IMG/VR virus record: IMGVR_UViG_2537561978_000005
Length of the DNA: 64,000 nucleotides
Source of the DNA: a virus
Taxonomy: Duplodnaviria; Heunggongvirae; Uroviricota; Caudoviricetes
Reading direction: 5' to 3' (one strand)
Part shown: one piece after another, positions 1,917 through 26,843 of the stretch
How the letters are laid out: each line of letters starts with the position of its first letter
How positions within the stretch are numbered: the stretch's first letter is position 1
Made by a program: the position numbers and the translations under genes
Notes under the pieces: generated by a model
What the model was told of the DNA's origin: nothing
Databases searched by the model: none
Seen by the model: the letters and a program-made list of their open reading frames with translations, nothing else

Positions 1917-3424
1917 TGGCTGGCGGGCGCAAGATTAAATGCGTCACCAGCGATCCACGCTGGCGCGATATGGTAATCAAATACCGCTACAACTTTACCC
2001 AGGCTGTAGTCGATATTTTTGGGATGTTCCCCTCCCACCAGCAGCAGCAGATCATTCAGTCAGTGCAGGAAACGGGGAGTAGGACGACCGTCACGTCCGG
2101 ACACGGAACGGGGAAGTCGTCCCTTACCGCGATGTTGCTGTTGATTTTTATGATCCTGTTCCCCGATGCCCGTGTCATCATTGTTGCTAACAAGATAGGC
2201 CAGGTAAAAACAGGCGTATTCAAATACGTTAAACAGTATTGGGCGAATGCAGTTAAGCGTCATGGGTGGTTGCAGACCTATTTTGTCCTCTCTGACACCA
2301 TGTTTTATGAGCGCTCCCGTAAGGGGATTTGGGAAGTTCTCTGCAAAGGTTATCGACTCGGCAACGAAGAAGCGCTGGCGGGGGAACACGCGGCACATTT
2401 GCTTCTAATTCTGGATGAAGCATCTGGTATATCTGATAAGGCGATCGGCGTAATGACCGGTGCTCTTACTGAAGAAGATAACCGGATGTTGATGCTATCC
2501 CAGCCAACAAGGCCAAGTGGTTATTTCTACGATTCGCACCATTCTCGAGCAAAAACCCCAGACAACCCGAAAGGGATCTGGACAGCAATTGTTCTTAACT
2601 CGGAAGAATCACCGTTCGTCACACCACAATTCATCAAGGAGAAGCTTCTGGAATATGGTGGGCGCGATTCTATTGAGTACATGGTCAAGGTGCTTGGTCA
2701 GTTCCCACGAGAAATTAACGGCTATTTGCTTGGTCGTGATGAATGCGATCGCTCTGCTCGCCGCAAGGTGTTGTTGGAGAAAAACTGGGGATGGGTGGCA
2801 ACGGCTGACGTTGGTAATGGGCGAGATAAGTCGGTCCTCAACATCTGCAAGGTATCAGGTCACAGGGATAAGCGGCGCGTTGTTAACTTTAAGGTAATGG
2901 AGATGCCTGGCACTATGGACCCATTGGCCTTTGCTGACTTCATATATAACGAATGTACGCCGGAAAAATACCCGAATATAACAATCGCGGTTGATGCTGA
3001 TGGTTTTGGTTCTGATACGTGTGCGCAGTTGGTGCGTCGTGGTGCGAACCCGGTACGTATTCGGTGGGGAAAACCCATGTTTGCGAACAAAGACAGGGAG
3101 CGATTTGTTAATCAGCGTGCCTACGCAAATATTATGGCGCGAGATGCCATAAAGTCAGGGCGTATGCGGATAGACAGTGACCCTAAAACGGCAGAGCAAG
3201 CGTCAAAAATCCCCTTTTTACTGAATGAAGAAGGGAAAATGGCGATGATGCGCAAAGAGCACATGCGGCAAAAGCTAAACATCAAATCGCCTGACCGATG
3301 GGATACCTACTGCTTCACTATGCTGGTGGACTATGTGCCTGCTAATGAAGATATTGGTGCCGAAATGGCAACTTTCCGAGATCAGGTTCTGGCGGATATC
3401 GAAATGCCGGATCTGGATATATAA
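1916..3424 (+). CDS. pacB: terminase large subunit (PacB-like)
   Basis: 502 aa; Walker A SGHGTGKS, Walker B LLLILDEAS, C-terminal acidic nuclease-type motifs ATADVGNG and IAVDADGFG. Confidence 0.8.
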   Translation: MAGGRKIKCVTSDPRWRDMVIKYRYNFTQAVVDIFGMFPSHQQQQIIQSVQETGSRTTVTSGHGTGKSSLTAMLLLIFMILFPDARVIIVANKIGQVKTGVFKYVKQYWANAVKRHGWLQTYFVLSDTMFYERSRKGIWEVLCKGYRLGNEEALAGEHAAHLLLILDEASGISDKAIGVMTGALTEEDNRMLMLSQPTRPSGYFYDSHHSRAKTPDNPKGIWTAIVLNSEESPFVTPQFIKEKLLEYGGRDSIEYMVKVLGQFPREINGYLLGRDECDRSARRKVLLEKNWGWVATADVGNGRDKSVLNICKVSGHRDKRRVVNFKVMEMPGTMDPLAFADFIYNECTPEKYPNITIAVDADGFGSDTCAQLVRRGANPVRIRWGKPMFANKDRERFVNQRAYANIMARDAIKSGRMRIDSDPKTAEQASKIPFLLNEEGKMAMMRKEHMRQKLNIKSPDRWDTYCFTMLVDYVPANEDIGAEMATFRDQVLADIEMPDLDI

Positions 3425-12657: not shown

Positions 12658-14161
12658 GGTCCACCTCATGCTTTTCAGCCACCAGCGGCAATAAAGCCCT
12701 GGCCATCTTATGAACCAATAGTGCATCAATAATGCCAAGCGTATGCCCCGGCTTAATGTTTAATGCCGCCTCAAGGCGACACCTTTCCAGGCCACTTTTC
12801 TCGGCTTGTTTATGATGATCTGGTGTAATAACGTCGCCCAAAACACGGCTAATTCTTTCTCGTAATTGCTGGGTGCCAGCACACTTGATCGCTGTATCGT
12901 GGAGACGGTTAACCAGTTCGCGATAAACATGCGGCTTAATGCGGATACGTTCACCGGTGACGCCCTTTCCTGGCGCTGGCACCGAACTATCCGGAATATC
13001 CGGATAGTTGCCTGCCAGTCTACGCAACACAGCCTTAACGGCCTCAATACGGTCATCATCGCAACTTTCCGCCGTATCTATGCGGTCGAGCATGATGATG
13101 GCGTTATCAATATCAGGATTGCCGGTCCACTCATTACCGCGATTGGATTCGGCAGACTGGTTACCAGATGCGGGTTGATTGTCGGCCTTACCCAGCCTGT
13201 CGTCGCTGCATGAATGCCCTTCCAGCCAGGCCAATGCTTGTCGCATGAAATACGCAATATGCTTGCCGTGGTAATCGTCTTCATCGATGTGAAAAGCGAT
13301 ACTGCGGATATATTCAATTGCGTTTTCAATGGCCTCCGGCGTTACCGGTGCTGACATATTTTGATTTTGGAGTGCCAAGACGCGGCTGGCATCCTCTACG
13401 CCTTTAACTGCATCTGCGCAGTAGTTATAGCGATTGCATTCCACTAACTTCTGCTTGAGATTTTCAATTGCTTGCGCGACATCAGCCTGTATTGGCGGAA
13501 CGGCTGTTTGCTCTCGAACGTCATTAGTCGCTATCGGTTCTGCTGCCAACTGACTGGCATATTTGTTAATGGTAACGATAAGCTCTTGCTCGGCCTCATC
13601 CAGACAATCACCGATACCTCGCCTGTCACCGTCAAAATCATCGAAATCGGCACGAACTCTGGCAAACTTCAGGATTGCTGACAACACCTCACTAGGAATT
13701 ACCGGATAGTTGGTTGACGTTTCCGCGATTTCCCGAAAATTATTGGTTGACGAATTCTTGCTTTCCCGAAAGTTTCCGGACTGAAGCATGGCGGTGCGGC
13801 AGGCGTTCCATATTTCGGCAGCAATATCGCGCTCGCTATCGGTTAATTTGTACGTGGAAACATAGCCAGAGAGCATTTCTACGTTTTCCGGAGTTGCTTC
13901 TTCCGGCACTACCGGCGCTGGCGGGGCGATGCGTCCAAGCAACTTATTTACCTCTTTCGCCATCGCGTCATATTTATCTAAATGGCGATTAGCTTCTAAG
14001 CAGACTCGGCGCATCTGATCTGAGTTAACTCGTTTAACTGGATCTGCTTCCAGCGATGCCAGCGCAATCCGTGCCAGTTCCATTTGTTCACCACGGGTAA
14101 GCCCGTTTTCAAGCGGATTTTTAATGAACAATTCAATACGTTCTTTGGTAATAGTGGTCAT
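12641..14161 (-). CDS. hypothetical modular protein
   Basis: 506 aa; segment HVYRELVNRLHDTAIKCAGTQQLRERI shared with 20749..21387 product. Confidence 0.6.
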   Translation of the reverse strand: MTTITKERIELFIKNPLENGLTRGEQMELARIALASLEADPVKRVNSDQMRRVCLEANRHLDKYDAMAKEVNKLLGRIAPPAPVVPEEATPENVEMLSGYVSTYKLTDSERDIAAEIWNACRTAMLQSGNFRESKNSSTNNFREIAETSTNYPVIPSEVLSAILKFARVRADFDDFDGDRRGIGDCLDEAEQELIVTINKYASQLAAEPIATNDVREQTAVPPIQADVAQAIENLKQKLVECNRYNYCADAVKGVEDASRVLALQNQNMSAPVTPEAIENAIEYIRSIAFHIDEDDYHGKHIAYFMRQALAWLEGHSCSDDRLGKADNQPASGNQSAESNRGNEWTGNPDIDNAIIMLDRIDTAESCDDDRIEAVKAVLRRLAGNYPDIPDSSVPAPGKGVTGERIRIKPHVYRELVNRLHDTAIKCAGTQQLRERISRVLGDVITPDHHKQAEKSGLERCRLEAALNIKPGHTLGIIDALLVHKMARALLPLVAEKHEVDHANES

Positions 14162-14171
14162 GTGTTACTCC

Positions 14172-20445: not shown

Positions 20446-20752
20446 GTACTCTCCTTTCGAAATAAACGTACTGATTAATCATGCCCAGGGGCATTTCGAG
20501 TTTTTCCGCGATCTCACGGCGGGGAACACCACACTGATGAAGCTGCCGCGCCAGTTCTATATCGCTCTGCCGGAATTTGGCTGACGGATGAAAGTCTCCT
20601 TTCAGAATCATGCTGATCCCCAACTCCCGCGCTTTAGTCCTGACGGCATCACCGGTACGACCGATCAGCTTCCCAATACTCTCGACCGTCATAGTTCCGG
20701 CGCACTGGCGGAGTATCATGATTTCTGCCCTTCCCCATCCCCGCCAGCTCAC
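20435..20752 (-). CDS. putative HTH DNA-binding protein
   Basis: 105 aa; TVESIGKLIGRTGDAVRTKARELGI helix-turn-helix-like. Confidence 0.45.
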   Translation of the reverse strand: MSWRGWGRAEIMILRQCAGTMTVESIGKLIGRTGDAVRTKARELGISMILKGDFHPSAKFRQSDIELARQLHQCGVPRREIAEKLEMPLGMINQYVYFERRVHEV

Positions 20753-21387
20753 GCAGAACTCCTTCTAACCAAAAGAACGCCATCTTCAGAAACAACGTTG
20801 CAGGACTTCAGGTAATTCATTGCCTCTTTCGGTAATGGATTCTTTGGATCGGCGTTTGCCAGGGATTTCGATAACCTCATGATAAATTTGATCATTACCT
20901 TCTGGCGGAGCTTGTGCTCATGAGATAAAGACAGGTAATAGGAAATGGTATGGGCTAAACGCTCACGAAGCTGTTCTGTGCCGTGATATACAGCAGCGAT
21001 ATCACGCAGTGCATTGACCAGTTCCCGGTAAATATGCGGAGCAACCTGGCATTCAATGTTGGTTGGTGACTCATAAATTACAGTCAGCCCCAGCTTTTCA
21101 GCCAGCGCGTGCTCTGCGCGAGCACCAACCGATTCTTCCCATCGATTGAGCAAGTAGATCGCATCAGCAGAACGCACCATTGCCAGGCAAATATCCATGT
21201 ATTCACTCTGACAAAGGCCACCAGGTAACATAGCTGGATTCAGAACGATATGCCCTTCAGCCATCAACTCGCTCGCTTTCGCATTAAACGCCGCACGGTT
21301 GTAATCTGGATAACCAGTCATCGGCCCCGCGATGTAAATTTTCAAAACACGTTTCACCATCAAAATTTCCCCAGAATCGTGACGCAA
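20749..21387 (-). CDS. DUF4406-like (nucleoside 2-deoxyribosyltransferase-like) domain protein
   Basis: IYIAGPMTGYPDYNRAAF ... HIVLNPA motif; likely start is internal Met at 21360 (TGATG coupling to upstream small ORF). Confidence 0.55.
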   Translation of the reverse strand: MRHDSGEILMVKRVLKIYIAGPMTGYPDYNRAAFNAKASELMAEGHIVLNPAMLPGGLCQSEYMDICLAMVRSADAIYLLNRWEESVGARAEHALAEKLGLTVIYESPTNIECQVAPHIYRELVNALRDIAAVYHGTEQLRERLAHTISYYLSLSHEHKLRQKVMIKFIMRLSKSLANADPKNPLPKEAMNYLKSCNVVSEDGVLLVRRSSA

Positions 21388-21632: not shown

Positions 21633-22211
21633 ATGCAGAAACAGAGTTATTGGGAGAAACAGAGACAAAAAGCCATGCAAAAATTGGCTGACCCGGCCTG
21701 GCGAGAGGAACAAAGGGCAAAGCGCCTTCAACAAGCTCAACGCCAGCAGCAGCGAGCGAGAGAAAAAGCCGCATCGCCTGAATATCGGCAAAAGAAAATT
21801 GAAAAAGCAAAGCAATATGAACAGCGGAGAAAAGATAAAGCTGTATCCGCTCCGTCCAAAAAAACACGCACGTCACGCGGCCTGAAAGGCAGATCACTCA
21901 CAGCCGATGAACGCCGGATACAGACCGCTATCGGTGCTCTCCCCTGCATTGCCTGCCATATTCACGGGCAACATAGCCCAGTGGTATCCCTGCACCATAT
22001 CTTCGGGAGAACGGCAGAGAACGCGCATAAATATGTCCTCCCTTTGTGTAAATGGCACCACCAGTACGCAGCGCCAGCCGAGGTCAGAGAACAATATCCC
22101 TGGCTGGTCCCTGTTCATGCTGACGGAAAAATAGGCGGAAAAGCAGATTTCATGCGGCACAATGCCGATGAAATGACGTTGTATCAGATGGCGATTGAGT
22201 TGATAAATTAG
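21633..22211 (+). CDS. ref: Ref-like HNH-family nuclease
   Basis: 192 aa; highly basic low-complexity N-terminal ~95 aa then His/Cys-rich core (LPCIACHIHGQH ... LCKWHH), as recalled for P1 Ref. Confidence 0.5.
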   Translation: MQKQSYWEKQRQKAMQKLADPAWREEQRAKRLQQAQRQQQRAREKAASPEYRQKKIEKAKQYEQRRKDKAVSAPSKKTRTSRGLKGRSLTADERRIQTAIGALPCIACHIHGQHSPVVSLHHIFGRTAENAHKYVLPLCKWHHQYAAPAEVREQYPWLVPVHADGKIGGKADFMRHNADEMTLYQMAIELIN

Positions 22212-22226: not shown

Positions 22227-22542
22227 AGTTGAATTGAAAAACTCTCCGATGTACATTCACTACCGATTGGCACACCGGTCAACTTTTTGAGACAAACTGT
22301 TTAGTTTTTCGTATTATTGCCTCCGCCATACCTATGGCGGTGCAATATAGGTGGCTGAAAAGCCCCCGTTGACTCACGGTGTTCCAGCCTTTATTGCGCC
22401 GCCACCAGACCGTGGAACAGTCGATGGCGGCTCCGAAAGCAAGGAGTCACAACACTATGAACAACTACAGTCTTTTCCCATCACTCGTCTTCCACCACTC
22501 ACGCGATAATCTGCATTCTTTACTCGCGCTGGAGGTGTCAAA

Positions 22543-22710
22543 ATGACGGTTCGCTACCTCAACTTTCAAATCAAGAACATTACTGGCGGTTGCTATGACT
22601 GGTTTGTCACTCTCGGAAAAGAAGTGATCACCGGGAAGCTGGATGAAGTGAAAGCTAAAGCAATGGCCTACGCCTGCAAGCAAGCCCGGAAGAAATCCGC
22701 CAAAGCATAA
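22543..22710 (+). CDS. small protein (55 aa), hypothetical
   Basis: GGAGG 7 nt upstream of ATG; preceded by coupled 29-codon ORF (22457..22546, AAGGAG RBS, ATGA overlap). Confidence 0.35.
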   Translation: MTVRYLNFQIKNITGGCYDWFVTLGKEVITGKLDEVKAKAMAYACKQARKKSAKA

Positions 22711-22759
22711 AATACTGACTGTTGCGCCCTGGCATTATCGTGGGGTATATTTCTACGGC

Positions 22760-22838
22760 ACCTTAGAAAAACGGGTGCCGGGATTGAGACCCCGGATAAT
22801 GCAAAAGGCGACACAGACGCCGAAAGCGTCTTTTTTTG
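22760..22838 (+). ncRNA. candidate small structured RNA (c4-like antisense regulator?)
   Basis: three consecutive hairpins ending in intrinsic terminator; contains GATTGAGACC repeated at 22971-22980 near icd-position RBS, and complementary GTCTCAA at 22940-22946. Confidence 0.3.
22815..22838 (+). terminator. intrinsic terminator AGACGC-CGAAA-GCGTCT + T7
   Basis: 6-bp GC-rich stem followed by TTTTTTT. Confidence 0.65.
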
Positions 22839-23022
22839 TGTCATGCCATCGCACAGCCATACGTAGCGTATAGCTCCAAGATCAATGGTAGTGCTGGCTG
22901 GGCTGCCGAAAGGCAGGCCGGTTCCCTTTTGCGCCGGTAGTCTCAACCCAGCCAGTGCTACCGCCATTGAGATTGAGACCTCACGCGGTAGCTCCTTAAA
23001 TTAGCAAAAGGAGGCTGCCAAT

Positions 23023-23238
23023 ATGGCTACTATCCCTACCCCAACTCATTCTGAATTTATCTGGCGTTTCTATTCCTGCCAAAAGCACCTGTATATCTGC
23101 GTCATGGCTGCTACCGAATCAGAGGCGCGCTCATACCTTCCCGAAGAACCCTGCATTTTTGCTGCTCGCTTCACTCTTGATGCGATGGAGATCCTCAATT
23201 ACTGGAATCTGCCGATGAACTGCGTGGAGGTGCGCTGA
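23023..23238 (+). CDS. small protein at the position of P1 icd; unverified
   Basis: 71 aa; AAAGGAGG RBS; stop overlaps ant-like start (TGATG). Confidence 0.4.
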   Translation: MATIPTPTHSEFIWRFYSCQKHLYICVMAATESEARSYLPEEPCIFAARFTLDAMEILNYWNLPMNCVEVR

Positions 23239-24179
23239 TGAATCTGTCCATCTCTCAAAAAGCGACAATGACCAGCATTGAGATCGCGGAGCTGGTAGGA
23301 AGTCGCCCAGATAGTGTGAAGAGAACTATCGAAACACTGGCTAAAAAGAGTGTGATCCAATTTCCACAATCTGTGGAAATTGAAAATAAACAATCAGTTG
23401 GCCCTCGTCGATTTTCCAAGGCTTACATCTTTGAAGGCGAACAAGGAAAACGAGACAGCATCATTGTCGTCGCGCAGCTCTCTCCGGAATTCACCGCCCG
23501 GCTGGTGGACCGCTGGCGCGAACTGGAGAATGCCCGGGTACAGTTAAAATCAAAAGCCGAAATCCTGGCTGAAATGGCGCAAATGCATCTTGAGCATGAA
23601 CGCCGGATCAACGCCGTAAATGCCCAGGTAGCCGAGGTATCAGCACAAGTATCGATGGTCGCTGAAACCGTCGAGCAAATAAAGAAAGGCAATATTCCGG
23701 AAGGCTACATTGGCTACCGCCAGTTGGCGGCGAAATGTGGCCTGACTGAAGCCAAATGTCGCAACCTGGTTAACGCTTACCGGATTCCCACCGATACGCA
23801 TGAGTTTTTAACTCCAGATGGTTTGCTTGCGCGACGCTCCATTGTGGCCCTGGCCCCCTTCCGGAAAGCCTTTAAGCAGGTGATGTCAGAGGCAGAACCA
23901 CGCAATAAACGCTGGTATCATCCAAAGATGGGGATGTTTCAGGCAATCCACCATCCTGTGCCTGAAAGTCCAAAGGCAAACCTGTCGTTGCATACCGCCA
24001 GAGAGAGGATTAAAACAGGCTATGCAATCGTATGCCGTCGAGCATCCTGGCCTGAAGGTGTATGGGTGTGGCCCGAAGGTGGATCACGAAAGCACTGGCG
24101 CACTATCCGGGATGGGAAAATCCATGCGATTGATTTAGCTCCAGAGGATGTTGTTGCTACGGACTGGATTGTTAGTTAA
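23238..24179 (+). CDS. antirepressor-like protein, Rha-family N-terminal domain with DUF2829-like C-terminal module
   Basis: MTSIEIAELVGSRPDSVKRTIE (Rha-like); in-frame internal Met; C-terminus ARERIKTGYAIVCRRASW ... DVVATDWIVS. Confidence 0.65.
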   Translation: MNLSISQKATMTSIEIAELVGSRPDSVKRTIETLAKKSVIQFPQSVEIENKQSVGPRRFSKAYIFEGEQGKRDSIIVVAQLSPEFTARLVDRWRELENARVQLKSKAEILAEMAQMHLEHERRINAVNAQVAEVSAQVSMVAETVEQIKKGNIPEGYIGYRQLAAKCGLTEAKCRNLVNAYRIPTDTHEFLTPDGLLARRSIVALAPFRKAFKQVMSEAEPRNKRWYHPKMGMFQAIHHPVPESPKANLSLHTARERIKTGYAIVCRRASWPEGVWVWPEGGSRKHWRTIRDGKIHAIDLAPEDVVATDWIVS

Positions 24180-25156: not shown

Positions 25157-26229
25157 TGCTTGCATTTACACAACTTACATTAGTTCGAAATAAGCTAAGG
25201 GAGATATCAGAATCTCCCTATTTTTCTAAAGACATGCATGAATATCTTGCTGTTCTACAAGAAGCGGTAGATAAGCTCTATGAAAACCATGTGAATGTTG
25301 CTGATAAAATAATTGCGGATTGTACTTTTTTTATCACCGATGCAGTTAATTTTTTCACTGGCAGTACTACAAAGAAAATTCCCTACGAGATTGTTTATTG
25401 CTTAAATGATGCCTGTAAAAAATGGATAAGTGAAAAAACACTTATAACCACAGCCCTATCTCCAGATATGCATGGGTTTTATTTTAAGTCTGTAAACAAG
25501 AATTTGTATTCTTTATTTGATGAAGTTTTAAATGTCAAATTCGAGGTCGAATTAATTCAGATTTCATTACCTGAAATGTACAGAAGACGACCATTATGCT
25601 CTATACCTTTATATCACGAATTGGGACATTTCGTTGATATTAGCAAAGGTATTTCTGAGCTTGCCTGTCTTAACTATCGTTCCAAGGACAAAGGCACACT
25701 TCCAGGACCAGAATGGAGTAATCTACCTGATGTTATTTGGATAAATCATTGCAGAGAATATTTTGCAGATCTATTTAGTGCCCAATTTATTGGAAAAAGT
25801 GGGGTAGATTTCTTATACAAATTAGCTGGCTCTCATCCTGCAAGCTATACTCACCCATCCACAGAAGATAGAGTTAAAATTGTAAGCGACTTTTTGAACA
25901 AAGTGGAAAATCCAGTTGTTGGCATGTTCAATGCTGTGATATCAGCCTTACATAAGGGTGGGCAGATTATTTCTCCTTGTTTGACATTGCCGACACCTTT
26001 GCTTGATGTGAAATCAGCTTTTGATAATGTGCGTCCTTTTGTTATTCGCGACCACAATGAAATGCATGCTTTTATTAACAGCAGCTGGCAGTACTTATGC
26101 TCTGAATGGGAAAAACCTACGGGTATATGGTCTGGGTTGTCAAAAGAAGCCATAGAAAAAACTATAAATGATTTGGTTGAAAAATCGATTCGAAACGTAA
26201 TGATTCTTGAAAAATGGAGTGCACAATGA
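25156..26229 (+). CDS. ImmA/IrrE-type (COG2856-like) HExxH zinc metallopeptidase domain protein
   Basis: 357 aa; LYHELGHFVD followed ~35 aa later by REYFADLFSAQFIG (E-x-FA signature). Confidence 0.55.
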   Translation: MLAFTQLTLVRNKLREISESPYFSKDMHEYLAVLQEAVDKLYENHVNVADKIIADCTFFITDAVNFFTGSTTKKIPYEIVYCLNDACKKWISEKTLITTALSPDMHGFYFKSVNKNLYSLFDEVLNVKFEVELIQISLPEMYRRRPLCSIPLYHELGHFVDISKGISELACLNYRSKDKGTLPGPEWSNLPDVIWINHCREYFADLFSAQFIGKSGVDFLYKLAGSHPASYTHPSTEDRVKIVSDFLNKVENPVVGMFNAVISALHKGGQIISPCLTLPTPLLDVKSAFDNVRPFVIRDHNEMHAFINSSWQYLCSEWEKPTGIWSGLSKEAIEKTINDLVEKSIRNVMILEKWSAQ

Positions 26230-26843
26230 ATCTCCTAAGCAAAGCTGAATTGCTGCAATATTATGAATCAGAAGAACCTGAGTCGTTGTTCATTGAACCT
26301 CTTCTAAATAAAAACCAAATTGGAAACTTCACCATAGACCTTAGACTTGGTTACGATTTTTTAGTGTCTATTATGACAAGGAAGCCGTCAATAGAGTTAA
26401 TTCCCTCAAAAAACAATGATACTCATCAACCAATCAGAACATTTTTCCAGGAAACAAGGAGAGATCTTGGGGATAGGTTCATTGTTTACCCGAATCAAGT
26501 GGTACTGGCAACAACATTAGAATATGTTTGTTTGCCACCAGATTGCTACGCTGATGTATTGTCCAGAAGCAGCTATACAAGGCTTGGTCTTTCATTAAAT
26601 ACCATGATACAACCAGGGTACAGAGGCTGTATATCTTTAGAGTTATTTAATCATGGGAATAGCCCTGTAGAACTTATTGTTGGATCTCGCATATGTCAAA
26701 TTCGTATATTCAAGAATGAAACTGTCGGTGAATACATAAGTCATGAGTCTCACAGGAAATATTTCGGAAATGTGAGGCCAACCGTCTCAGCAGCAGAAAG
26801 TGATAATGAATTAAATATGCTGGAAAAGATCCGACAAAAATGA
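26226..26843 (+). CDS. dCTP deaminase / dUTPase-superfamily protein
   Basis: IDLRLG, SRSSYTRLGL and IQPGYRGCISLELFN match recalled Dcd motifs VDVRLG, GRSSLARLGL, IDPGWSGCIVLEFYN; start coupled (ATGA). Confidence 0.65.
   Translation: MNLLSKAELLQYYESEEPESLFIEPLLNKNQIGNFTIDLRLGYDFLVSIMTRKPSIELIPSKNNDTHQPIRTFFQETRRDLGDRFIVYPNQVVLATTLEYVCLPPDCYADVLSRSSYTRLGLSLNTMIQPGYRGCISLELFNHGNSPVELIVGSRICQIRIFKNETVGEYISHESHRKYFGNVRPTVSAAESDNELNMLEKIRQK

Follow-up and report, generated by a model that had tools for sequence, protein, structure and literature searches.

The window analyzed here is the whole 64,000-nucleotide (nt) stretch of virus record IMGVR_UViG_2537561978_000005, and it carries on its + strand an operon with the gene order leader - C4 - icd - ant. 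A scan of the whole window with Rfam at curated thresholds returned exactly two matches, isrK and C4, both of which lie in this operon. The 1.7 kb surrounding the locus are 98% identical to Escherichia phage D6 (NC_050154), a P1-family plasmid prophage, and 99.8% identical to the E. coli plasmid pKY1497_2, and the 316 bases of the locus itself are 100% identical to D6. Judged by its sequence, the window is therefore a P1-family plasmid prophage of the phage D6 type, with the locus as its immI operon. A preliminary description had already recognized an immI-like locus with a P1 C4-type RNA switch over an icd-position gene and a Rha/Ant-type antirepressor, a view borne out by the Rfam C4 match, the P1 layout and covariation. 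Based on the identity to D6, the gene order, the two Rfam matches, the positional match with P1, the rarity of the pairing elements in shuffled sequences, the covariation, and the experiments published for P1 and Gifsy-1, we conclude that the locus is very probably a C4 antisense-RNA switch that silences the icd and antirepressor genes in the lysogen.

The icd-like product matched NCBIfam phage_ICD_like (50.3 bits, cutoff 25) and shares 63% identity with P1 Icd (tblastn, E = 2e-18). The next gene belongs to phrog_63, 'anti-repressor Ant' (E = 1e-61), and gave a weak, below-threshold match to Pfam Phage_pRha (26.2 bits). Its ATG overlaps the icd stop codon (ATGA), which suggests that icd and the antirepressor gene are translationally coupled. 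Within the window, searches with tblastn and nhmmer found neither another icd nor another full C4; the published second copy of D6 lies outside it. The D6 and RefSeq records carry no RNA gene annotation at the locus. The D6 record has an antisense open reading frame (ORF) of 99 amino acids (aa), 'orf84' (22668-22967, -), that spans both RNAs and has no family match, and the RefSeq record has an 'ash family protein' coding sequence (CDS) over C4, followed by the Icd-like gene and a Rha-family/anti-repressor gene.

Features of the immI locus (positions in the window)
Feature	Position	Strand	Basis
Probable sigma-70 promoter of the immI operon	22722..22751	+	function inferred
IsrK-family leader, equivalent to the P1 'c4-a1b1' leader	22758..22837	+	Rfam isrK
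a1, upstream GATTGAGACC copy, core UUGAGAC 22784-90, loop of leader hairpin 2	22782..22791	+	complementary to a'
b1, upstream GCAAAAGG copy, linker between hairpin 2 and terminator	22801..22808	+	complementary to b'
Leader intrinsic terminator, AGACGC-CGAAA-GCGTCT + T-run	22815..22837	+	terminator scan, isrK model, covariation
C4 antisense RNA gene	22881..22968	+	Rfam C4, fold
b' CCUUUUGC, loop of C4 hairpin 2; pairs with b1, b2	22925..22932	+	fold, covariation
a' GUCUCAA, C4 single-stranded junction; pairs with a1, a2	22940..22946	+	fold, covariation
a2, downstream GATTGAGACC copy, core 22973-79	22971..22980	+	co-varies with a'
GCGGUAGC, 3' strand of alternative hairpin with C4 3' stem strand 22957-64	22985..22992	+	covariation
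b2, downstream GCAAAAGG copy, overlapping icd Shine-Dalgarno AAGGAGG (23008-14)	23004..23011	+	co-varies with b'
icd-like gene, 71 aa	23023..23238	+	NCBIfam, tblastn, D6/RefSeq annotation
Antirepressor gene, 313 aa, Rha-like N-terminus	23238..24179	+	phrog_63

The C4 gene matched Rfam C4 (RF01695) over its full length (model 1-87 of 87) with 76.0 bits against a gathering score of 45. Its predicted fold reproduces the architecture of the family: a closing stem of 16 bp encloses hairpin 1 (CUGCC-GAAA-GGCAG, 22903-16), hairpin 2, whose loop has 12 nt, and a single-stranded junction of 8 nt before the 3' stem strand. The minimum free energy (MFE) of this fold is -49.1 kcal/mol (z = -6.34), and none of 200 shuffles was equally stable. 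By homology to the annotated 77-nt C4 of P1, the mature RNA is predicted to span ~22887-22965 (~79 nt).

The preliminary description had noticed within 22881-22968 the GNRA hairpin and the 7-mer GTCTCAA, which is indeed present at 22940-22946, and had overlooked the complete 88-nt C4 structure; it had also put the hairpin at 22905-22918, 2 nt downstream of its real position. The C4 analogue it had proposed was the upstream RNA, 22757-22837. That assignment does not hold, as this RNA has the same sense as the target, carries a1 and b1, matches isrK, and is a homologue of the 'c4-a1b1' leader of P1 and P7. The upstream terminated RNA does belong to a bona fide small-RNA family, has its own promoter-like site and terminator, and has a 10-mer in common with the icd leader. 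Nevertheless, it is highly improbable that it acts on the icd leader through GATTGAGACC as a C4-like trans repressor: the two GATTGAGACC copies run in the same sense as direct repeats and hence cannot pair together, both are complementary to the junction of 22881-22968, the full-length C4 match, and the upstream copies in P1 are annotated as targets (a1, b1) rather than as the effector. Furthermore, IsrK, the homologue in Gifsy-1, activates and does not repress.

The upstream RNA matched isrK (RF01394) at 22758-22836 over the whole model (1-77 of 77) at 59.1 bits, above the gathering score of 50. It consists of hairpin 1 (GGCACC/GGTGCC, 22757-62/22774-79), hairpin 2 (CCGGG-ATTGAGA-CCCGG, 22778-95) and the intrinsic terminator (hairpin at 22815-31). 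All three hairpins and the terminator named in the preliminary description are present, the T-run reaches 22837, and the last hairpin was also found by a terminator scan. The terminator helix co-varies over the relatives (92.3% paired, with 0 of 500 shuffles as high). Two forms of the leader are predicted, namely a terminated small RNA of ~80 nt and the 5' segment of a read-through mRNA. Upstream of it, the -35 hexamer TTGCGC (22722-27) and the -10 hexamer TATATT (22746-51) are separated by an 18-nt spacer. The distance from the end of the -10 to the 5' end of the leader is 7 nt, exactly as for the mapped P1 promoter P1c4/P51b (TATAGT), and a TAYAYT -10-like sequence is retained at the same position in relatives. 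Transcription is predicted to start at ~22757/22758 because of this positional homology to P51b.

Leaders of this kind are filed under two Rfam families. The family c4-a1b1 (RF03163, 'a1, b1 targets of C4 antisense RNA') was first listed by Weinberg et al. 2010 (PMC2864571). The leaders of P1 and P7 pass its threshold with 51 and 55.5 bits, and the same bases score 35 and 43.7 bits with isrK, below threshold; in Gifsy-1, AU5Stx1 and APSE-1, overlapping bases of the leader exceed both thresholds. Since both models match the same or overlapping bases in P1, P7, Gifsy-1, AU5Stx1 and APSE-1, these matches indicate that isrK and c4-a1b1 describe one homologous element, and that the leader of the window is homologous to the c4-a1b1 leader but filed under isrK. 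Hfq binding and trans-activation of antirepressor translation are experimental properties of IsrK known from Gifsy-1 only (PMC4825925). Between the leader terminator and C4, at ~22859-22879 (+), lies a D6-type insertion of ~21 nt that contains the palindrome ATACG-TAG-CGTAT; it is absent from the P1, Stx, APSE and Gifsy-1 modules.

The 10-mer GATTGAGACC occurs exactly where it had been reported and nowhere else in the 64 kb, which makes two copies against 0.10 expected; none of 100 shuffles yielded two. The repeat noted ahead of the icd ribosome-binding site is thus real, and its complementarity to GTCTCAA does belong to the switch. A second repeat, GCAAAAGG, had been missed. Three of the six such 8-mer copies in the window, at 22801-08, at 23004-11 and as the complement at 22925-32, lie within 210 nt, and it is this repeat that covers the icd Shine-Dalgarno sequence. 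The a2 element begins 3 nt past the end of the C4 model, 44-53 nt upstream of the icd ATG. The predicted a':a2 duplex has 7 bp and b':b2 has 8 bp, the latter over AAGGAGG. Sequence position therefore identifies b2, not a2, as the element covering the icd ribosome-binding site and, by analogy with P1, as the site where C4 binding would block the entry of the ribosome. Among 20000 shuffles each, complementarity to both C4 elements arose twice for the downstream region and once for the leader. A hairpin predicted from the long-range MFE to hide the icd Shine-Dalgarno sequence (22991-97 with 23008-14) was rejected: 67.8% of its cells were paired compared to 66.5% in shuffles, and a slid register did better.

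The a and b elements were compared over 80 Icd-anchored viral contigs and the leader-C4 modules of P1, P7, Stx phages, phiP27, SfV, P88, APSE-1 and Gifsy-1; a scan of genome contigs with Icd returned no confirmed relatives. The leader-C4 tandem was present in all modules collected. By their (b', a') pair, the 94 modules sort into 17 specificity types, all of which carry cognate a1/b1 in the leader and cognate a2/b2 after C4 at conserved offsets, and full cognate matching at all four sites holds for 91 of the modules. The repeats, whose lack of conservation in related elements would have spoken against the preliminary description, are thus conserved in position and co-vary with C4. Summed exact complementarity was 27-33 nt for self combinations compared to a mean of 17.7 for non-self ones (the low self value of module L039 reflects G-U pairs), and mean duplex energies were -22.3 kcal/mol for cognate and -13.3 kcal/mol for non-cognate combinations.

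Covariation was computed on a 43-sequence alignment of these modules, which are related, so that the counts of changes are not counts of independent events. Between C4 and a2/b2, 95.7% of the cells were paired, with 116 double-sided changes and a covariation score of 0.494 against at most 0.103 in slid registers. Likewise, 95.9% of the cells were paired between C4 and a1/b1, with 120 double-sided changes and a score of 0.527 against at most 0.168; in both cases 0 of 500 shuffles scored as high. The a1:a' helix (96.3% of cells paired) shows double-sided changes at 5 of its 7 pairs, b1:b' at all 8, and a2:a' co-varies at 5 of 5 variable pairs. Because 17 distinct types all keep the three-way matching, the alignment provides strong evidence that both target sets, a1/b1 and a2/b2, serve as C4-binding sites. 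The upstream elements, merely 'putative' in the P1 annotation, hence appear to be under the same selection as the proven a2/b2.

Substitutions between near-identical D6/P1-like backbones are concentrated in the a and b elements. All four combinations of a = UUGAGAC or UUGGAAC with b = GCAAAAGG or GUCAAAGG occur on such backbones (L001, L067, L010 and L007), and each switch of an a or b allele needs coordinated 2-nt changes at three sites. From these comparisons, the a/a' and b/b' sequences are predicted to set immunity specificity, the window representing one of at least 17 natural types. One P1-like viral contig (L043) carries two identical isrK-C4 modules, at 1257-1446 and 2823-3012, 1566 nt apart.

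The alignment also revealed an alternative hairpin that lies outside the Rfam C4 model, between the 3' strand of the C4 stem (22957-64) and 22985-92. In total, 95.3% of its cells were paired, with 39 double-sided changes and a covariation score of 0.345; slid registers reached at most 0.102, and none of 500 shuffles scored as high. This hairpin puts a2 in its loop and excludes the C4 closing stem, and it can form only in the unprocessed transcript, prior to C4 excision. As it forms only before excision and competes with the closing stem, it may influence C4 processing.

Together, these elements suggest the following mechanism. Transcription from the promoter would start at ~22758 and produce a leader with a1 (UUGAGAC) exposed in a hairpin loop, b1 (GCAAAAGG) located in a linker, and a terminator at its end. 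Part of the transcripts would stop at 22837, giving an RNA of ~80 nt, and the rest would read through C4, icd and ant, as shown for the Gifsy-1 homologue. C4 would be cut from the read-through RNA as a stable ~79-nt RNA, as shown for P1 and P7. Its b' CCUUUUGC and a' GUCUCAA would then pair with b2 and a2 of the mRNA and block the icd ribosome-binding site. With b2 overlapping its Shine-Dalgarno sequence, icd would not be translated; the coupled antirepressor, whose start overlaps the icd stop, would not be made, and lysogeny would be kept. In P1, RNase P processes C4 at its 5' end, and untranslated icd also permits Rho-dependent termination. The pairing of C4 with its targets is strongly supported by covariation, and its consequences are drawn from P1 and Gifsy-1. 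The a1/b1 elements most likely act as competitors for C4. Acting in cis, they would drive the precursor into an inactive fold; the short leader RNA, acting in trans, would serve as a decoy that titrates C4 and switches icd and ant on, as over-expressed IsrK does in Gifsy-1.

The leader could also work by attenuation similar to that by P4 CI, with C4 pairing to b1 in the nascent leader, breaking an anti-terminator, favoring the terminator and shutting off read-through into C4-icd-ant. Two leader folds are indeed nearly iso-energetic, the terminator form at -22.0 kcal/mol and an alternative at -23.4 kcal/mol that sets the b1-adjacent GGCG/UGCA against both terminator strands. C4 and P4 CI RNA also belong to one Rfam clan, P4 CI gives premature termination through seqA/seqC, the Gifsy-1 authors raised attenuation as a possibility, and IsrK supplied in trans in Gifsy-1 raised a transcriptional fusion 8-fold (PMC4825925). 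Attenuation would be compatible with translational repression at b2. However, the anti-terminator helix (GGCG 22807-10/CGCC 22818-21) shows no compensatory change in the 43 sequences and breaks where it is variable; 87.3% of its cells are paired compared to 86.1% in shuffles, and its covariation score is 0, whereas the terminator itself does co-vary. We consider attenuation of this kind unlikely.

The conservation of the C4 stretch has another conceivable source, a small upstream ORF (39 aa, 22885-23004, +, 'ash family'/orf45-like) whose translation would open or couple to icd. PGAP annotates a 39-aa CDS over C4, the ORF barely reaches Pfam Phage_ASH (26.8 bits, threshold 26), and for Gifsy-1, translation of tagged orf45 and a dependence of anrP expression on its start codons have been reported (PMC4825925). 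Yet the ATG at 22885 lacks a Shine-Dalgarno sequence and its AUGG forms the conserved base of the stem of C4; the ORF ends 19 nt short of the icd ATG, without overlap, and it has no NCBIfam match. Variation across the C4 region obeys RNA pairing rules, not codon rules, and the Gifsy-1 authors found the nucleotide sequence of orf45 conserved and its amino-acid sequence variable (PMC4825925). It is thus improbable that the stretch is conserved mainly as a coding sequence, and Pfam Phage_ASH may largely track translated C4/CI-type RNA.

Several observations weigh against the C4 switch proposed above. Every functional step in it rests on homology. The antirepressor is not homologous to P1 Ant1 (BLASTP, E = 0.34), so that its target is assumed; its function is analogous to that of P1 Ant1/2, but the protein family differs. 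The hexamers named in the preliminary description are present, with the -10 spaced as in P51b, but the -35 matches the consensus at 3 of 6 positions, and because of this weakness the site was not listed by a generic promoter scan. A search of the whole 64 kb for a P1-type C1 operator (Op51-type, ATTGCTCTAATAAATTT) with up to 3 mismatches found none; the D6-type repressor presumably recognizes a different operator, and as the D6 operator sequence could conceivably differ, D6 C1 may control the promoter all the same. The c4-a1b1 model (RF03163) gave 21.7 bits for the leader of the window compared to the 46.7 needed (22745-22798, E = 0.003 in a 451-nt search). Decoy, cis-folding and attenuation are all candidate roles for a1/b1. 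A simple sponge model fits poorly with Gifsy-1, where IsrK toxicity was not counteracted when the C4-like region was constitutively expressed (PMC4825925). Finally, a1 or a2 is imperfect in three natural modules. Module L037 (1234-1506) combines an a1 of the GAGAC type with a' and a2 of the GGAAC type, apparently by recombination between its leader and C4, L088 forms 6 of 7 pairs at a1, and L089 forms 6 of 7 at a2. Full three-way matching is therefore not absolutely required.

The weak -35 would also suit a reading of the repeats and hairpins as chance features or as relics devoid of current function. We give this reading almost no credence, as two Rfam families score above threshold, the repeats number 2 against 0.10 expected, joint complementarity appears in at most 2 of 20000 shuffles, and the three-way covariation spans 17 types in P1-like, lambdoid, P2-like and APSE phages.

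Upstream, at 22330-22409 (+), lies another C4-like RNA that carries no annotation. It scored 40.2 bits with Rfam C4 (threshold 45, E = 7e-6) and has the C4 architecture with a 6-nt hairpin-2 loop (z = -4.6). Complements to its junction (UGGAACA, 22413-19) and to its loop (GAGUCA, 22444-49, over the Shine-Dalgarno sequence AAGGAG) follow downstream, both of which occurred jointly in 15 of 20000 shuffles, and an alternative hairpin of the same kind as that of C4 can form (GCCGCCA with UGGCGGC). The element precedes a 29-aa ORF (ATG 22457) that is joined by an ATGA overlap to a 55-aa ORF (22543-22710, phrog_7786) ending 12 nt upstream of the immI promoter. It is near-invariant in relatives with ~82% identical flanks, and most of its changes keep the stem. 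Its targets never vary either, and their pairing with it is a candidate. A leader-like a1 hairpin further upstream (~22262-79) was partly complementary and not conserved, and is not claimed. The other neighbors include a DUF4406 protein (20749-21387, -), a Ref-like RecA-dependent nuclease (21633-22211) and a dCTP deaminase-like gene (26214-26843).

D6 itself carries another leader-C4-icd-Ant (Roi-like) module outside the window, beside repL on the minus strand (L095, NC_050154 7000-34300, ~13694-14170). Its a' CUGUCAA is that of P1, its b' CGUAAGU is new, and it has cognate a1/b1/a2/b2. As this module is cognate with distinct a'/b', one plasmid runs at least two orthogonal C4 circuits, which agrees with the second region stated for a D6-like plasmid (PMC6799933).

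We tentatively extend the model, with somewhat more doubt than confidence, to a three-element circuit of decoy leader, C4 repressor and mRNA target, whose specificity would be combinatorial via a and b. D6-type plasmids would run several mutually orthogonal copies of it, namely the module of the window, the P1-like module by repL, and the short-loop C4 variant at 22330-22409 repressing a small-ORF pair. If so, IsrK, c4-a1b1 and P4 seqA would be one element, Gifsy-1 'orf45/STnc1160' would be C4, and two literatures still listed separately would merge.

The immI locus would decide whether a widespread E. coli phage-plasmid remains lysogenic. With a 1.7-kb query that spans the locus, 427 of 5426 complete E. 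coli genomes matched at least in part, 86 of them over at least 80% of the query length. For annotation, the correct reading of the locus is an IsrK-type leader, then C4, then icd/ant. The a/b sequences would predict which relatives are hetero-immune, and the comparative set amounts to a natural collection of orthogonal antisense/target pairs in which both target copies co-vary with C4 over the 17 types. The chief value of the locus lies in this clean three-way covariation, in the connection it makes between the literatures on IsrK and on C4, and in the extra C4-like element at 22330-22409.

The switch is well supported as functional, but its kind is already known, namely the P1 immI type, since both RNAs pass curated family thresholds, the same tandem is annotated in some Stx-phage records and noted in APSE, and a D6-like plasmid has been described in these terms. 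This plasmid, pYU39_89, was reported to carry an ImmI-like region with homologues of c4, icd and the antirepressor, plus a second such region (PMC6799933). In P1, C4 represses Ant synthesis in trans (PMC8546580), and the P1 record annotates P51a/P51b, a1, b1, c4, a2 and b2 ('repression of icd ant translation'), icd and ant. The window agrees with P1 and P7 position for position in the order and spacing of all elements: a lies in the loop of leader hairpin 2, b' in the loop of C4 hairpin 2 and a' in the C4 junction, a2 follows C4 after 0-6 nt, and b2 lies on the icd Shine-Dalgarno sequence. It also shares with P1 a homologous icd (63%), the antirepressor ATG over the icd stop, and the distance from the -10 to the leader. 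In contrast, the a/b sequences are UUGAGAC/GCAAAAGG in the window, UUGACAG/GUUAGUG in P1 and UUAGCAG/GAUUGUG in P7, and the immunity specificity is therefore predicted to differ. The window further differs from P1 and P7 in a leader that scores as isrK rather than c4-a1b1, and from P1 in the ~21-nt D6-type insertion, in a Rha-like phrog_63 antirepressor unrelated to Ant1/2, and in having no P1-type C1 operator within its 64 kb.

P4 immunity (CI RNA, seqA and seqC; clan CL00128) likewise relies on a processed small RNA between two copies of its own target in one transcript, and the Gifsy-1 authors considered IsrK a structural homologue of seqA (PMC4825925). Unlike C4, CI acts by premature transcription termination, not by a block of the ribosome-binding site, and an equivalent anti-terminator is unsupported in the window.

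Stx phages, phiP27, SfV, P88 and APSE share the isrK-C4 tandem before Rha/Ant genes, with cognate a/b sets. They differ in lacking icd, with C4 acting directly on the antirepressor start, and in having other backbones and other specificities. Both isrK and C4 RNAs are annotated in records LC710660 and LC710661, and both RNAs and their a'/b' matches were noted in APSE (PMC7313666). In Stx2_14040, Stx1_699, SfV and phiP27 (L087, L088, L089 and L093), a CDS for the antirepressor or 'immunity region' is annotated through the isrK-C4 module, as with SfV orf37 (540-1376), drawn over the RNAs at 900-1088; the start codons of such CDSs were probably called too far upstream.

Gifsy-1 presents the IsrK leader with its terminator, a C4-family RNA and the antirepressor in the same tandem (isrK-orf45/STnc1160-anrP). 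It differs from the window by the absence of icd, by a b2 directly on the anrP Shine-Dalgarno sequence, by an ORF over C4 that overlaps the anrP start, and by its place in a lambdoid prophage, within the nin/Q region. Some of the transcription that starts at the isrK promoter passes the terminator and the resulting read-through RNA is translationally silent, an ~80-nt RNA (STnc1160) is processed from the 'orf45' read-through transcript, and IsrK in trans raises antirepressor translation 139-fold (PMC4825925). Hershko-Shalev et al. 2016 proposed that IsrK opens an inactive mRNA fold and likened it to P4 seqA; C4 was not named (PMC4825925), and IsrK and c4 were still separate entries in a 2025 review. 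We found that the 'orf45/STnc1160' region is a C4-family RNA (69 bits, Rfam C4). Furthermore, the pairs validated there with the compensatory mutants G28A/C162U and G31A/C159U (PMC4825925), IsrK G28:C162 and G31:C159, fall on the a1:a' duplex, AUUGGCGU with ACGCCAA.

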